NCBI RefSeq assembly: GCF_055900595.2
Contig: NZ_CM148325.1
Reading direction: 5' to 3' (one strand)
Length of the DNA: 64,000 bases
The notes under the pieces are model-generated. The model saw nothing but the letters and a program-made list of their open reading frames with translations, was not told where the DNA came from and did not search any database. A program made the translations under genes and the position numbers. How positions within the stretch are numbered: position 1 is the first letter of the stretch; every line of letters starts with the position of its first letter. Shown here piece by piece: positions 5,410 through 12,690 of the stretch.

Positions 5410-6083
5410 CAAACGTTCTGATTGTTGAAGATGAACAGGCTATTCGTCGCTTTCTGCGCACGGCGCTGGAGGGTGACGGTATGCGCGTTTTTGAAGCCGA
5501 AACGCTGCAACGGGGGCTGCTGGAAGCGGCAACTCGTAAGCCAGATTTGATTATTCTCGATCTCGGCCTGCCAGACGGTGATGGGATTGAGTTTATCCGC
5601 GACCTGCGCCAGTGGAGCGCGGTGCCGGTGATTGTGCTTTCCGCACGTAGCGAAGAGAGCGACAAAATCGCCGCGCTGGATGCTGGAGCGGATGATTACC
5701 TGAGTAAGCCGTTTGGCATTGGTGAATTGCAGGCCCGTCTGCGCGTTGCTTTACGCCGCCACTCTGCTACCACCGCGCCCGATCCGCGGGTGAAATTTTC
5801 TGATGTTACCGTCGATTTAGCCGCCCGCGTGATTCACCGCAGTGAGGAAGAGGTGCATCTCACCCCGATTGAATTCCGCCTGCTGGCGGTGCTGCTCAAC
5901 AATGCCGGAAAAGTGCTCACCCAGCGCCAGTTACTCATTCAGGTGTGGGGACCAAACGCGGTCGAACACAGCCATTATTTGCGTATTTATATGGGGCATC
6001 TGCGACAAAAACTGGAGCAAGATCCCGCCCGCCCTCGCCATTTTATTACTGAAACCGGTATTGGGTATCGGTTTATGCCATGA
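5406..6083 (+). CDS. kdpE: Response regulator KdpE (OmpR family)
   Basis: 225-aa ORF with a GTG start overlapping the kdpD stop (ATGTGA); receiver domain plus winged-helix domain. Confidence 0.95.
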   Translation: MTNVLIVEDEQAIRRFLRTALEGDGMRVFEAETLQRGLLEAATRKPDLIILDLGLPDGDGIEFIRDLRQWSAVPVIVLSARSEESDKIAALDAGADDYLSKPFGIGELQARLRVALRRHSATTAPDPRVKFSDVTVDLAARVIHRSEEEVHLTPIEFRLLAVLLNNAGKVLTQRQLLIQVWGPNAVEHSHYLRIYMGHLRQKLEQDPARPRHFITETGIGYRFMP

Positions 6084-6772: not shown

Positions 6773-8971
6773 ATGTCAGAATTAAAAATTGCCGTTAGTC
6801 GTTCTTGCCCGGATTGTTTTTCCACTCATCGTGCATGCGTGAATATTGACGAAAGTAATTATATTGACGTTGCCGCCATTATTTTATCAGTCAATGATGT
6901 TGAACGTGGAAAACTCGATGAAATAGACGCTACTGGCTATGGCATTCCTGTTTTTATTGCAACGGAAAATGAAGAACGTGTACCAGCAGAATATCTGCCA
7001 CGTATTACTGGTGTCTTCGAGCATTGTGAATCACGGAAAGAATTTTACGGACGTCAGTTAGAAACCGCTGCCAGCCATTATGAAACGCAGTTGCGCCCGC
7101 CCTTCTTCCGCGCACTGGTCGATTATGTCAATCAGGGCAATAGCGCTTTTGACTGCCCGGGTCATCAGGGGGGTGAGTTTTTCCGTCGCCATCCGGCAGG
7201 CAATCAGTTCGTGGAATATTTTGGTGAAATGCTCTTCCGCTCCGACTTGTGTAATGCCGACGTAGCAATGGGCGATCTACTGATTCATGAAGGTGCGCCA
7301 TGCATTGCACAGCAACATGCGGCTAAAGTGTTTAATGCCGATAAAACGTACTTTGTTTTAAACGGCACCTCCTCTTCCAACAAAGTGGTTTTAAACGCCC
7401 TGCTAACACCGGGTGATCTGGTGCTGTTTGACCGCAATAACCATAAGTCTAACCACCACGGGGCCTTGCTACAGGCTGGTGCAACACCGGTTTATCTGGA
7501 AACAGCACGTAACCCGTATGGTTTTATCGGTGGTATTGATGCGCACTGCTTCGAAGAAAGTTATCTGCGTGAACTGATTAGAGAAGTTGCACCGCAACGG
7601 GCAAAAGAGGCGCGTCCGTTCCGCCTCGCTGTGATTCAGTTAGGCACCTACGACGGTACTATTTATAACGCCCGCCAGGTGGTGGATAAAATCGGTCATC
7701 TGTGTGACTACATCCTGTTTGACTCAGCATGGGTCGGCTATGAACAGTTTATTCCGATGATGGCGGACTGTTCGCCGCTGCTACTGGAGCTTAATGAGAA
7801 CGATCCGGGTATTCTGGTTACGCAATCTGTACATAAGCAGCAGGCTGGTTTTTCTCAGACTTCACAAATTCATAAAAAAGACAGCCATATCAAAGGGCAA
7901 CAGCGTTATGTCCCGCACAAACGCATGAACAACGCCTTTATGATGCACGCCTCCACCAGCCCGTTCTATCCGCTGTTTGCCGCACTGGATATTAACGCCA
8001 AAATGCATGAAGGTGTCAGCGGTCGTAATATGTGGATGGATTGTGTGGTTAACGGTATTAATGCCCGCAAATTGATCCTCGATAACTGTCAGCACATTCG
8101 TCCGTTCGTTCCTGAACTGGTGGATGGTAAACCCTGGCAATCGTATGAAACAGCGCAAATTGCGGTTGATCTGCGCTTCTTTAAATTTGTACCCGGTGAG
8201 CACTGGCATTCTTTTGAAGGTTACGCAGAGAACCAATACTTTGTCGATCCGTGCAAACTGTTGCTGACAACTCCTGGCATTGATGCACGTAACGGCGAAT
8301 ATGAAGCATTCGGTGTACCCGCGACGATTCTTGCTAACTTCCTGCGCGAAAATGGCGTAGTGCCGGAAAAATGCGATCTTAACTCCATCCTCTTCCTGCT
8401 GACTCCGGCAGAAGATATGGCCAAACTGCAGCAACTTGTTGCCCTGCTGGTACGCTTCGAAAAACTACTGGAAGCTGATGCGCCTCTGGCGGAAGTATTG
8501 CCTTCCATCTACAAACAGCATGAAGAGCGCTACGCCGGTTATACCCTGCGTCAGTTGTGCCAGGAAATGCATGATTTGTATGCCCGTCACAACGTGAAAC
8601 AACTGCAAAAAGAGATGTTCCGTAAGGAACACTTCCCACGCGTCAGCATGAATCCACAGGAAGCCAACTATGCCTACTTACGCGGTGAAGTGGAATTGGT
8701 TCGTCTGCCGGATGCAGAAGGCCGTATCGCAGCCGAAGGTGCGCTTCCTTATCCTCCGGGTGTGCTGTGTGTTGTTCCGGGTGAAATCTGGGGTGGTGCT
8801 GTTCTGCATTACTTCAGCGCTCTGGAAGAAGGGATCAACCTGCTGCCAGGTTTTGCACCGGAGCTGCAGGGTGTCTATATCGAAGAACATGATGGTCGTA
8901 AGCAAGTTTGGTGCTATGTCATCAAGCCTCGTGATGCGCAAAGCACCCTGTTGAAAGGGGAAAAATTATGA
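6773..8971 (+). CDS. speF: Inducible ornithine decarboxylase
   Basis: ORF 6764-8971 (735 aa); PLP-dependent Orn/Lys/Arg decarboxylase family. Start at MSELKIAV (6773) preferred over 6764; the choice is uncertain. Confidence 0.93.
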   Translation: MSELKIAVSRSCPDCFSTHRACVNIDESNYIDVAAIILSVNDVERGKLDEIDATGYGIPVFIATENEERVPAEYLPRITGVFEHCESRKEFYGRQLETAASHYETQLRPPFFRALVDYVNQGNSAFDCPGHQGGEFFRRHPAGNQFVEYFGEMLFRSDLCNADVAMGDLLIHEGAPCIAQQHAAKVFNADKTYFVLNGTSSSNKVVLNALLTPGDLVLFDRNNHKSNHHGALLQAGATPVYLETARNPYGFIGGIDAHCFEESYLRELIREVAPQRAKEARPFRLAVIQLGTYDGTIYNARQVVDKIGHLCDYILFDSAWVGYEQFIPMMADCSPLLLELNENDPGILVTQSVHKQQAGFSQTSQIHKKDSHIKGQQRYVPHKRMNNAFMMHASTSPFYPLFAALDINAKMHEGVSGRNMWMDCVVNGINARKLILDNCQHIRPFVPELVDGKPWQSYETAQIAVDLRFFKFVPGEHWHSFEGYAENQYFVDPCKLLLTTPGIDARNGEYEAFGVPATILANFLRENGVVPEKCDLNSILFLLTPAEDMAKLQQLVALLVRFEKLLEADAPLAEVLPSIYKQHEERYAGYTLRQLCQEMHDLYARHNVKQLQKEMFRKEHFPRVSMNPQEANYAYLRGEVELVRLPDAEGRIAAEGALPYPPGVLCVVPGEIWGGAVLHYFSALEEGINLLPGFAPELQGVYIEEHDGRKQVWCYVIKPRDAQSTLLKGEKL

Positions 8972-10287
8972 GTCAGGCTAAATCGAACAAAATGGGCGTC
9001 GTTCAGTTAACCATACTGACGATGGTCAACATGATGGGCTCCGGCATCATCATGCTGCCGACAAAGCTTGCCGAAGTTGGGACAATCTCAATAATCTCCT
9101 GGTTGGTGACAGCCGTAGGCTCAATGGCGCTGGCATGGGCATTCGCAAAATGCGGTATGTTCAGCCGTAAATCAGGCGGTATGGGCGGTTATGCCGAGTA
9201 TGCTTTCGGTAAATCCGGTAACTTTATGGCGAACTATACCTACGGCGTCTCGCTGCTGATTGCTAACGTGGCGATTGCTATTTCGGCAGTTGGTTACGGC
9301 ACCGAACTGCTCGGCGCGAGTTTGTCACCAGTGCAGATTGGTCTGGCAACCATCGGAGTGCTGTGGATTTGTACCGTGGCTAACTTTGGTGGTGCGCGCA
9401 TTACCGGGCAAATCAGTAGCATTACCGTGTGGGGGGTCATTATTCCGGTGGTAGGCCTGTGCGTTATCGGCTGGTTCTGGTTTAGCCCGACACTTTACGT
9501 TGATTCCTGGAATCCGCATCATGCACCGTTCTTCAGTGCGGTAGGTTCTTCCATCGCCATGACGCTGTGGGCTTTTCTTGGTCTGGAGTCTGCGTGTGCG
9601 AATACTGATGTAGTGGAAAACCCGGAACGTAATGTGCCAATCGCGGTACTCGGCGGTACGTTAGGTGCGGCGGTGATTTATATCGTCTCCACCAACGTGA
9701 TTGCCGGGATTGTGCCCAATATGGAGCTGGCAAATTCAACGGCACCATTTGGTCTGGCCTTCGCGCAAATGTTCACACCGGAAGTGGGTAAAGTCATTAT
9801 GGCGCTGATGGTGATGTCCTGCTGCGGTTCACTGCTTGGCTGGCAGTTCACCATTGCCCAGGTGTTTAAATCTTCATCTGATGAAGGCTACTTCCCTAAA
9901 ATTTTCTCCCGTGTAACCAAAGTGGATGCACCGGTTCAGGGGATGTTGACCATTGTGATTATTCAGAGTGGATTGGCACTGATGACCATTAGCCCGTCAC
10001 TGAACAGCCAGTTCAACGTGCTGGTTAACCTGGCCGTGGTGACCAATATCATCCCATATATTCTGTCGATGGCGGCATTAGTCATTATTCAGAAGGTCGC
10101 CAATGTGCCACCATCAAAAGCGAAAGTAGCAAACTTTGTTGCCTTTGTTGGTGCGATGTACAGTTTCTATGCGCTGTACTCATCCGGGGAAGAAGCCATG
10201 CTGTACGGTTCCATCGTGACTTTCCTTGGTTGGACACTGTATGGTCTGGTATCACCACGCTTTGAACTGAAAAACAAACACGGTTAA
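8968..10287 (+). CDS. potE: Putrescine:ornithine antiporter
   Basis: 439-aa polytopic membrane ORF (APC family), start overlapping the speF stop (ATGA). Confidence 0.95.
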   Translation: MSQAKSNKMGVVQLTILTMVNMMGSGIIMLPTKLAEVGTISIISWLVTAVGSMALAWAFAKCGMFSRKSGGMGGYAEYAFGKSGNFMANYTYGVSLLIANVAIAISAVGYGTELLGASLSPVQIGLATIGVLWICTVANFGGARITGQISSITVWGVIIPVVGLCVIGWFWFSPTLYVDSWNPHHAPFFSAVGSSIAMTLWAFLGLESACANTDVVENPERNVPIAVLGGTLGAAVIYIVSTNVIAGIVPNMELANSTAPFGLAFAQMFTPEVGKVIMALMVMSCCGSLLGWQFTIAQVFKSSSDEGYFPKIFSRVTKVDAPVQGMLTIVIIQSGLALMTISPSLNSQFNVLVNLAVVTNIIPYILSMAALVIIQKVANVPPSKAKVANFVAFVGAMYSFYALYSSGEEAMLYGSIVTFLGWTLYGLVSPRFELKNKHG

Positions 10288-10330: not shown

Positions 10331-11050
10331 AAATGCGCCTGTAAGGCTCTGTTACCAGCCGCGCCCTAACAGGCGCATACGATCTGACATTTGCATTCAA
10401 CTTCGTTACTTACGGCCCGTAAACGGGCTGCCCGGATATGGAATCGATAACTGCTCCCCCATTTTATCCTCTTCAAGCTGGTGCTTTATGTAGTCCTGTA
10501 TCTTCGCCGTGTTCTTACCCACCGTATCGACATAGTACCCTCGGCACCAGAACTCCCTGTTTCTGTATTTGAATTTCAAATCCCCAAACTGCTCGTAAAG
10601 CATCAGACTGCTTTTCCCTTTCAGATATCCCATAAAGCCGGATACGCTCATTTTGGGTGGGATTTCCACAAGCATATGGATATGATCTGCGCAGCACTCT
10701 GCTTCCAGAATCCGTACGCTTTTCCACTCACACAGCTTTCTCAAAATACTGCCTATCGCCCTACGCTTCTCTCCGTAAAACGCCAGTCTTCGGTATTTCG
10801 GCGCAAAAACTATGTGATATTTACAGTTCCAGCGGGTGTGCGCTAAGCTCTTTTCGTCCCCCATTGGGACCCCCTTTTGATTTCTTGTTTGACACTTGCA
10901 GTTGCCAGACCGCAAGGTGTTTTAACAAATCAAAAGGGGTTTTAATAACTGGCTCAAAGCTGAAAGCTTTCCGGAACCCCCAGCCTAGCTGGGGGTTTTC
11001 TGTGCACAAAAAAAGGGCGATTGAATGATCGCCCTTTCTGTTTGTTGACA
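10330..11050 (-). mobile_element. IS200-like insertion sequence (IS200/IS605 family); ends approximate
   Basis: Contains a Y1 transposase gene (HTRWNCKYHIVFAPKYRR motif) flanked by hairpins: cccccagc-cta-gctggggg at about 10978-10998 and a stem followed by a T-run on the minus strand at about 11012-11045. Size (about 0.7 kb) is consistent with IS200. Exact ends not determinable by eye. Confidence 0.75.
10406..10864 (-). CDS. tnpA: IS200/IS605-family Y1 (HUH) transposase TnpA
   Basis: ORF 10406-10915; start placed at MGDEKSLAHTRWNCKYHIVFAPKYRR (152 aa). Contains the HxH motif (ADHIHMLVEIPP) and a C-terminal region typical of IS200 TnpA. Confidence 0.9.
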   Translation of the reverse strand: MGDEKSLAHTRWNCKYHIVFAPKYRRLAFYGEKRRAIGSILRKLCEWKSVRILEAECCADHIHMLVEIPPKMSVSGFMGYLKGKSSLMLYEQFGDLKFKYRNREFWCRGYYVDTVGKNTAKIQDYIKHQLEEDKMGEQLSIPYPGSPFTGRK

Positions 11051-11078
11051 AAGAGTTCGTTATTTATGCCGCATCCGG

Positions 11079-11221
11079 CAGGTGTAGGATCCAAACGCGG
11101 TCGAACACAGCAACTATTTGCGTAATTATATGAGGCATTTGCGACAAAAACTGGAACAGGATCACGTCCGCCCCGCCATTTCATTACTGAAACCGGTATT
11201 GGGTATCGGTTTATGCTTTGA
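11079..11221 (+). repeat. Decayed direct duplicate of the kdpE 3' end (kdpE-remnant pseudo-sequence)
   Basis: 143 bp that align by eye with kdpE 5940-6083 (caggtgt...aaccggtattgggtatcggtttatgc...tga). The copy has TGG to TAG and a 1-nt deletion, so it is non-coding. Confidence 0.8.
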
Positions 11222-11344
11222 AAAAAGTGGCAATGTATGGATAAAGTCATTTTTTATTCAAATATAAGGAACTTAATATTTAAAAAATGTCCCATACAAT
11301 GCCTCATCATAAATGACACCGTAGCACACAAGGAGCAAGTAGCG

Positions 11345-11995
11345 ATGCGTGAAGTGAGTCAGTTAGTAAATACTGAAGATTCAGCCTGGACAATAATCCA
11401 GAATTGGTTAAAAGAAGCCACAAACCATGCCGAACTCTTACCGGTTAATAAAGATTTAGCCGAAACCGCACTTTATCAATTACAGGTTACAACAAAATCA
11501 CCGATGGGTGCGCTTGTCTATGGCTCCGGAGGTCTGCTGATTGATAACGGTTGGTTACGCATATCAGGCTCTGGTCACCCCCGGTTACCACGAGATCCAG
11601 CAAGTTGGACACAACGCCCTGAATTCGCAAGCGTGCGGGCTTTACCCATCGCCGATGATGTCGCAGGGGGAATTTTTGCTCTTAATGGTGGCGATCTTGG
11701 GGAAGATACTGGCTGCGTTTATTATTTTGCGCCAGATACGCTGAATTGGGAAAGTCTGGAGGTTGGATATTCTGAGTTTCTTCAGTGGGCATTATCCGGT
11801 GATTTAGATACCTTCTATGAAAATGTACGCTGGCCGCAATGGCAAGAAGACGTAATAAAATTATCGGCAACGGAAGCCTTCACTTTCTACCCTTTCTTAT
11901 GGGTACAAAGTGAAGAAGCAAGAACAAGAAAAGTTATTTCGCTTACTGAACTCTGGGAAATGCAGTATCAAATGAAAGAAACAATCACGCAATAA
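11345..11995 (+). CDS. ybfG: Conserved hypothetical protein (YbfG-like, DUF2625 by recollection), apparently intact
   Basis: ORF 11237-11995; start placed at ATG 11345, preceded by aaggag at 11330-11335. The ybfG assignment is positional (between potE and ybfP/pgm) and from memory, not from a domain search. Confidence 0.6.
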   Translation: MREVSQLVNTEDSAWTIIQNWLKEATNHAELLPVNKDLAETALYQLQVTTKSPMGALVYGSGGLLIDNGWLRISGSGHPRLPRDPASWTQRPEFASVRALPIADDVAGGIFALNGGDLGEDTGCVYYFAPDTLNWESLEVGYSEFLQWALSGDLDTFYENVRWPQWQEDVIKLSATEAFTFYPFLWVQSEEARTRKVISLTELWEMQYQMKETITQ

Positions 11996-12004
11996 GACAT
12001 GTTC

Positions 12005-12030
12005 AGGTCCGGGTTTCATTCCCGGACTCG
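12005..12030. terminator. Putative bidirectional terminator between convergent ybfG and ybfP
   Basis: gtccggg-tttcatt-cccggac hairpin in the 40-bp gap between the two stop codons. Confidence 0.5.
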
Positions 12031-12035
12031 CTATT

Positions 12036-12530
12036 TTAATGTGTGTTTATCGCTTTCAATTCTTGCTGGCAATTTTCTGACTGACAGCGTCGCAACTCAA
12101 TAATCCCGACATGCATCATCGAGCCAAAAAATCCGCTTTCGCTGACATAATCCTCATTAACTATCGGTCGAGTGCCGGGCTTACCCTGGCAAATCCCCAT
12201 AAAAAATGAGGTGTAGCATTGCCATTCAGGATTTAAACCGGTCTTTTCTTGTGCTGACATATCATGAAGATAAGTAAGTTCTTTTTCGTTCCCGCCTGAC
12301 AACTGCCAGCGGCGGGTATTATCAGGTAAGTTATCGCCACGGCAATTTGTCTTACACCGGGAAGGCGCAATATTTACCGCAATGCTACCCGTTAATCCTC
12401 TGGTTTTATCTTTAGGGGTCAGTAACCAGTCACCAGCTAATGATGATTGTTCAGGTTGGGCGCATGCTGTCAGCAGTAGTGTGGCGGTAATTAATGCCAC
12501 TCTGACGACCAGACTCCTTTTGGTCTTCAT
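12036..12530 (-). CDS. ybfP: Putative lipoprotein YbfP
   Basis: ORF 12036-12581; start placed at MKTKRSLVVRVALITATLLLTAC (lipobox LLTAC), 164 aa. Confidence 0.8.
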   Translation of the reverse strand: MKTKRSLVVRVALITATLLLTACAQPEQSSLAGDWLLTPKDKTRGLTGSIAVNIAPSRCKTNCRGDNLPDNTRRWQLSGGNEKELTYLHDMSAQEKTGLNPEWQCYTSFFMGICQGKPGTRPIVNEDYVSESGFFGSMMHVGIIELRRCQSENCQQELKAINTH

Positions 12531-12584
12531 TTTGAATTCCCTTGAGCTATTCAGTTTGTTGGCAAAGTACTCGTTGTTCATGCC

Positions 12585-12690
12585 GGATGCGGCGTGAACG
12601 CCTTATCCGTCCTACAAAATAGTGCAAATTCAATATATTGCACCATCCTCGTAGGCCTGATGAACGTAGCGTATCAGGCTATCATAAGTA
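12585..12690. repeat. REP/BIME palindromic elements
   Basis: gccggatgcggcgtgaacgccttatcc... and ...gtaggcctgatgaacgtagcgtatcaggc REP-type units between ybfP and pgm. Confidence 0.7.

Follow-up and report, generated by a model that had tools for sequence, protein, structure and literature searches.

Intact ybfG as the usual allele in Escherichia coli and a possible orphan anti-DNase immunity role for its DUF2625 product

The window analysed here, a 64,000-nucleotide stretch of contig NZ_CM148325.1 (RefSeq assembly GCF_055900595.2), originates from an Escherichia coli chromosome and carries an uninterrupted copy of ybfG, a gene that is inactivated in K-12 by a single nonsense mutation. Intactness is the usual state of ybfG in E. 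coli and is not peculiar to the strain represented by the window; it is K-12 that is exceptional. The encoded protein belongs to the family DUF2625 and is predicted to adopt a SUKH/Tdi-like fold. Structural modelling, analogy with proteins of related fold, and one homologue encoded beside a toxin gene incline us, by a modest degree, to regard YbfG as an orphan immunity protein directed against DNases. The K-12 null allele has already been annotated as such, and the new element is the functional hypothesis for DUF2625.

The gene resides in a 1.6-kb accessory segment that is placed between potE (positions 8968-10287, + strand) and pgm. The segment consists of the ybfI remnant at its left end (~11080-11222, + strand), ybfG itself (11345-11995, + strand; 651 nt, 216 amino acids plus stop), and ybfP (12036-12530, − strand; 164 amino acids), beyond which pgm and seqA are encoded on the − strand. 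An IS200/IS605-family tnpA (10406-10915, − strand) marks an insertion upstream of ybfG that is present in the window and absent from K-12. The GC content of the segment is 44%, compared to 51% for the window as a whole. A megablast survey of 5426 complete E. coli genomes recovered the segment in about 1850, roughly one-third, and matches in the non-carriers were confined to the true kdpE gene and to repeat elements; the O157:H7 strain that was inspected has potE and pgm 56 bp apart, with no gene between them. REP/BIME-type palindromic repeats flank the segment at 11060-11090 (GCCGGATGCGGCG...) and 12580-12690 (TGCCGCATCCGGCA...), which accounts for the ~155,000 scattered places also returned by the survey (median 27 per genome).

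The kdpE remnant that the first-pass annotation had placed upstream of ybfG corresponds to the annotated K-12 pseudogene ybfI. This non-functional sequence is what is left of the 3′ part of a response-regulator gene resembling kdpE; it shares 89.9% identity with the 3′ end of the true kdpE (window positions 5941-6078), located ~5 kb upstream, and in the window it bears a 1-nt deletion relative to K-12. The presence of this fragment suggests either an older gene order, kdpE-ybfG-ybfP-pgm, or recombination with a donor having that order. Acquisition or rearrangement of the segment fits both its 44% GC content and the 90% identity of ybfI to the resident kdpE.

The reading frame of ybfG is continuous across 216 codons from the ATG at 11345, in agreement with the first-pass annotation, as judged from the open reading frame listing, in which a single frame (11237-11995) contains the gene, and from family profiles that match along its full length. 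The NCBIfam equivalog NF008494 (PRK11408) aligns over residues 1-216 of 216 with 504 bits (cutoff 278), and the suspected membership in DUF2625 is borne out by a Pfam match (PF10946; E 1.3e-86, 289 bits, cutoff 27) that covers practically the whole profile, positions 2-206 of 207. The start at 11345 is supported by a Shine-Dalgarno sequence read directly from the DNA (AAGGAG, 11330-11335, + strand, 9 nt upstream of the ATG), by both profile alignments, by the N-termini of 39 homologues, which align at this Met, and by the location of the promoter element upstream. A longer, 252-amino-acid product initiated at 11237 was considered and rejected, because that start would lie upstream of the putative sigma-E promoter, the extension occurs in no homologue, and the family profiles begin at the Met of 11345.

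In MG1655, ybfG (b0691) is an annotated pseudogene of the same 651 nt at the same potE-pgm locus, 96.5% identical in nucleotide sequence to the window copy and accompanied likewise by the upstream GGAACTT motif, the ybfI remnant, the convergent ybfP, and the intergenic hairpin. Translation and alignment reveal one in-frame stop in the K-12 gene, a change of codon 70 from TGG, as found in the window (11552-11554), to TAG. MG1655 contains a second change, G109V, at a position where the window retains Gly, and 11 other amino-acid differences separate the two proteins. The K-12 amber codon could be read through as glutamine in K-12 strains that carry the supE44 suppressor. The first-pass annotation described the K-12 gene as either split or a pseudogene; its pseudogene status stands, and the ortholog is indeed neither intact nor identical to the window copy, but the lesion is the W70 amber and not a split. 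The gene alignment contains no indel anywhere, which eliminates a frameshift in K-12. The older literature does use a split nomenclature, ybfH/ybfG (b0690-b0691; PMC2731931), and work in K-12 has employed ybfG as a neutral pseudogene control (PMC10067269).

The two altered positions are informative with respect to the history of the K-12 allele. An alignment of 40 DUF2625 sequences shows W70 to be nearly invariant and G109 to be invariant across the family. The intact YbfG of strain 504239 differs from that of HL15 solely at the amber codon, and HL15 has the amber codon with Gly retained at position 109. Compared at the sequence level, the K-12 TAG is thus a derived W70amber allele inside an otherwise intact common haplotype, and G109V in MG1655 fits further decay following inactivation.

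Allele frequencies were determined with 55-mers centred on the codon-70 SNP, a design in which each 28-nt megablast seed spans the variable base. The TAG allele occurs on the K-12-like haplotype in 365 genomes, while TGG is found on that same haplotype in 1284 genomes and on the window-like haplotype in a further 130. At least 1414 genomes therefore have TGG at codon 70, against 365 with TAG, among the ~1850 segment carriers. Many named K-12 laboratory derivatives appear among the TAG genomes listed. In RefSeq, the TAG copy carries the flag "internal stop"; the TGG copy is entered as a regular CDS. The finding that ybfG is intact in the window is, for these reasons, correct but ordinary; intactness is the normal state, and RefSeq already reflects it.

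Rates of substitution within the segment permit an assessment of whether ybfG, although intact, is simply a useless and drifting accessory gene that is nearing loss, with K-12 further along the same path. A comparison of two intact haplotypes gives dN/dS values of 0.25 (ybfG) and 0.19 (ybfP), as against 0.01 for potE and pgm (window versus K-12), indicating that both segment genes are loosely constrained. The 25-fold excess of ybfG over its flanking genes is compatible with drift, as are the lack of the segment from most E. coli genomes, the spread of a null allele in the K-12 lineage, and the second damaging change in MG1655. The window copy itself has acquired a private nonsynonymous substitution, A74S (GCA to TCA, with T at 11564), at a base that is G in all four other copies inspected, of either haplotype. 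This base is the sole difference from the nearest genome across 1701 nt, and the window 55-mer containing it has an exact match in none of the 130 genomes of the window-like haplotype. However, a dN/dS of 0.25 between intact haplotypes (dS ~0.08) still signifies purifying selection, TGG has been kept at codon 70 in at least 1414 genomes, and all five non-K-12 copies that were translated retain every family-invariant residue. Selection on intact ybfG alleles thus appears, from these comparisons, to be purifying but relaxed, and we consider the drift explanation improbable.

DUF2625 comprises 1473 clusters at 50% identity, mostly of single-domain proteins, distributed over at least 573 species in which Bacteroidota are dominant. 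The nearest relatives of YbfG outside Escherichia are 52-57% identical to it, members from Proteobacteria and Bacteroidota share 45-57% identity, and the 40-sequence alignment contains 27 invariant columns. A full-text literature search with DUF2625, PF10946, IPR021239, and PRK11408 retrieved no paper naming the family. A 1899-nt contig of a "Collinsella sp." metagenome-assembled genome (JAIJJM010000630.1) encodes a YbfG 95% identical to that of E. coli, and this contig most likely reflects E. coli DNA contaminating the bin.

An AF2 model of YbfG, obtained with high confidence metrics (pLDDT 91.5, pTM 0.89), provides insight into the possible function of the family. The model contains the alpha+beta SUKH core shared with SMI1/KNR4, YobK, and Syd. 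In a structure comparison, the highest score was reached by Tdi1, the Bacteroides immunity protein to the Ntox15 type VI DNase (12.9, with 167 residues aligned), followed by the Agrobacterium Tdi1, Atu4351 (11.1), Lin2918 (10.2), YobK (9.2), an SMI1/KNR4 protein (8.7), Knr4 (7.1), and Syd and the RhsPI immunity protein (5.3 each); the next unrelated fold scored 4.4. Foldseek ranks Tdi2 and Tdi1 top with the same model. At the sequence level, residues 89-137 of YbfG (ADDVAGGIFALNGG) give a weak match to SMI1_KNR4 (E 0.017; 16.2 bits versus a cutoff of 25.4). The structural matches, the agreement of Foldseek, and this weak profile match together indicate that YbfG has a Tdi-like fold of the SUKH type.

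The relationship to the Tdi proteins is nonetheless confined to structure. YbfG is 11-14% identical in sequence to Tdi1/Tdi2 of Bacteroidales and to Atu4351 of Agrobacterium. Four of the 40 DUF2625 members match SMI1_KNR4 and one matches SUKH_6 (E 0.074), but none matches DUF1851 or GAD-like, the Tdi families, even at E values up to 10, and YbfG is for that reason not filed as a Tdi family member. A search of PDB sequences with the DUF2625 family profile returned nothing meaningful (best E 0.02), and the PADLOC defence models gave no match to YbfG. Relative to SUKH-1 immunity proteins, of which B. subtilis YobK and the RhsPI immunity protein are examples, DUF2625 adds an N-terminal part of ~80 residues. 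The SUKH fold is also found in proteins that are not immunity proteins, among them Syd, Knr4, and FBXO3.

As an orphan immunity protein, YbfG would be a cytoplasmic member of the SUKH fold superfamily, structurally closest to the Tdi immunity proteins, with the task of binding and inactivating a DNase toxin domain that competitors deliver via Rhs, type VI, or contact-dependent systems. A locus in Clostridium homopropionicum DSM 5847 (LHUR01000012.1) counts in favour of this proposal. There, a DUF2625 gene begins 30 nt after a gene for a 2437-amino-acid Rhs protein on the same strand, and the Rhs protein exhibits YD repeats, a PxxxxDPxG core end, a glycine-rich hydrophobic linker, and a C-terminal NucB-like DNase domain (E 1e-31 to NucB, 5omt). 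This arrangement is the canonical layout of an Rhs toxin and its immunity gene. Downstream of the DUF2625 gene are two small ORFs without annotation and an Imm53 gene, and the locus as a whole resembles a toxin/immunity array with orphan modules. The toxin in this pairing, the only one found beside DUF2625, belongs to a DNase fold family different from that of Ntox15, the target of the Tdi proteins.

Some other homologues lie beside known immunity families, with the family names used as defined in PMC3482391. One homologue in Flavobacterium is flanked by DUF2314 (Imm34) and SUFU, and one in Citrobacter by DUF596 (Imm-NMB0513). Fusions include a DUF2625-SMI1_KNR4 protein and a tandem DUF2625 protein, and several homologues are located in mobile or variable regions. 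Orphan immunity genes have been documented for the Tdi system (PMC10470768).

The same survey of genomic context also weighs on the opposite side. An upstream toxin gene was seen in one of ~90 DUF2625 contexts examined, no Ntox15 gene was found beside DUF2625 in any of them, and most homologues stand alone. Among species-level loci, 78 of 79 were analysable; across these 78, no neighbouring family or conserved operon partner recurs beyond within-genus synteny, and most of the neighbours are unrelated housekeeping genes. The 77 species loci other than that of Clostridium have no co-oriented toxin domain directly upstream of DUF2625, and a tblastn search with the NucB-like domain combined with a search for Rhs hallmarks in all fetched loci led back to the Clostridium locus only. 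The window encodes no toxin partner of ybfG. Across phyla, moreover, DUF2625 shows much stronger conservation than SUKH immunity proteins typically do; judged from the sequences compared, this degree of conservation is unusually high for an immunity protein and counts against the immunity reading.

The regulation of ybfG raises a related issue. In K-12, a sigma-E promoter has been mapped upstream of the gene by 5′ RACE (PMC1312014), and overproduction of sigma-E increases ybfH and ybfG expression by 3.9- and 25.2-fold (PMC2731931). We infer that the published promoter corresponds to bases 11268-11295 on the + strand of the window, with GGAACTT at 11268-11274 as the −35 element and TCCCA at 11290-11294 as a candidate −10 element. 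All six alleles that were compared keep the perfect GGAACTT. At 11291 and 11301, where K-12 and the common haplotype both have T, the window haplotype carries C and G, respectively; these substitutions lie within the putative −10 element or immediately behind it and are common to the examined representatives of the 130-genome haplotype. Because the K-12 data place ybfG under a sigma-E promoter, expression is expected under envelope stress, and an immunity protein controlled in this manner would be produced when the envelope is stressed. Sigma-E control is, to our knowledge, not a known feature of immunity genes.

The main rival to the immunity proposal builds on this regulation and holds that YbfG would use its SUKH fold as an adaptor, serving housekeeping or stress functions within the sigma-E envelope response. 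Its partner would be endogenous instead of a foreign toxin, by comparison with Syd and SecY or with Knr4 and signalling proteins. The RACE-mapped promoter and the up to 25-fold sigma-E induction in K-12 (PMC1312014, PMC2731931) are consistent with such a role, as are the occurrence of Syd and Knr4 among the structure matches, the high conservation of DUF2625 with its many invariant polar residues, and the isolation of nearly all homologues amid ordinary genes. We regard the adaptor role as rather unlikely. Promoter and fold might also be reconciled in a damage-inducible form of the orphan immunity protein, in which envelope injury by type VI or Rhs weapons would activate sigma-E and thereby production of an anti-DNase YbfG, although we judge this specific version to be decidedly improbable.

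The neighbouring gene ybfP is, as the first-pass annotation had described, convergent with ybfG; it lies on the − strand opposite the + strand of ybfG, with 40 nt separating the two stop codons. That annotation also attributed a shared bidirectional terminator to the pair, a claim that is only partly sustained. A GC-rich hairpin, GGTCCGGG-TTTCATT-CCCGGACT, does lie in the gap (12006-12028) and can form on either strand, at −16.6 and −13.5 kcal/mol (z ~ −2.9), so that the hairpin itself is shared. On the + strand it is followed by a T-tract at 12029-12038 (CGCTATTTTA), and a terminator scan called a terminator on this strand only. The same scan called none on the − strand, and the ybfP side of the hairpin has no T-run. 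Because the T-tract lies on the ybfG side only, the hairpin is convincing as a terminator for ybfG but not for ybfP.

The product of ybfP is, as had been noted, a cysteine-containing predicted lipoprotein. A signal peptide, MKTKRSLVVRVALITATLLL, precedes the lipobox L-T-A-C (Cys23), and the whole has the basic n-region, hydrophobic h-region, and [LVI][ASTVI][GAS]C lipobox that define the lipoprotein signal; its parts, MKTKRS, LVVRVALITATLL, and L-T-A-C23, are invariant in all homologues. Six more cysteines, at positions 59, 63, 105, 114, 149, and 154, are likewise conserved in homologues. The residue at +2 after the lipobox Cys is Ala, which by the Lol rule predicts sorting to the outer membrane, and YbfP is thus probably a conserved cysteine-rich outer-membrane lipoprotein. 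A 181-amino-acid version initiated at 12581 was rejected, since a 1-nt indel in K-12 just upstream of the ATG at 12530 breaks that frame and the K-12 annotation gives 164 amino acids. Enrichment of the gene in phylogroup A has been reported (PMC5422975).

Co-inheritance of the two genes introduces the further notion that they constitute one module, for example two orphan immunity proteins, one cytoplasmic and one periplasmic, or an effector and its partner. In the genomes inspected, ybfG and ybfP are always gained or lost together on the one low-GC segment, and immunity to effectors that act on the envelope is commonly provided by periplasmic lipoproteins. Other properties of YbfP are difficult to accommodate in such a module. 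The 27 database relatives of YbfP all derive from Escherichia or from unnamed short contigs, while DUF2625 occurs without YbfP in at least 573 species. YbfP matches no model in Pfam, NCBIfam, or PADLOC, and its structure model, built from a nine-sequence alignment, is unusable (pLDDT 35). The two genes are also not co-transcribed, given their convergent orientation. A joint module is therefore highly improbable; ybfP is a separate convergent gene, tied to ybfG by co-inheritance on one segment alone.

The intact ybfG of the window accordingly represents routine strain-to-strain variation, with K-12 as the exception at this locus. The by-product of its analysis is a testable function for DUF2625, founded on a SUKH/Tdi-like fold and on a single Rhs-DNase pairing of canonical layout. 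Should YbfG be an orphan anti-DNase immunity protein, the E. coli gene could be named and given a place in interbacterial defence, its dispensability in the laboratory would be explained, and a highly conserved family would join the repertoire of immunity proteins. Were the less probable damage-inducible version also to be true, DUF2625, with its 1473 clusters in at least 573 species, would represent a widespread and unusually conserved broad-spectrum antidote to nuclease toxins, one that K-12 has lost.
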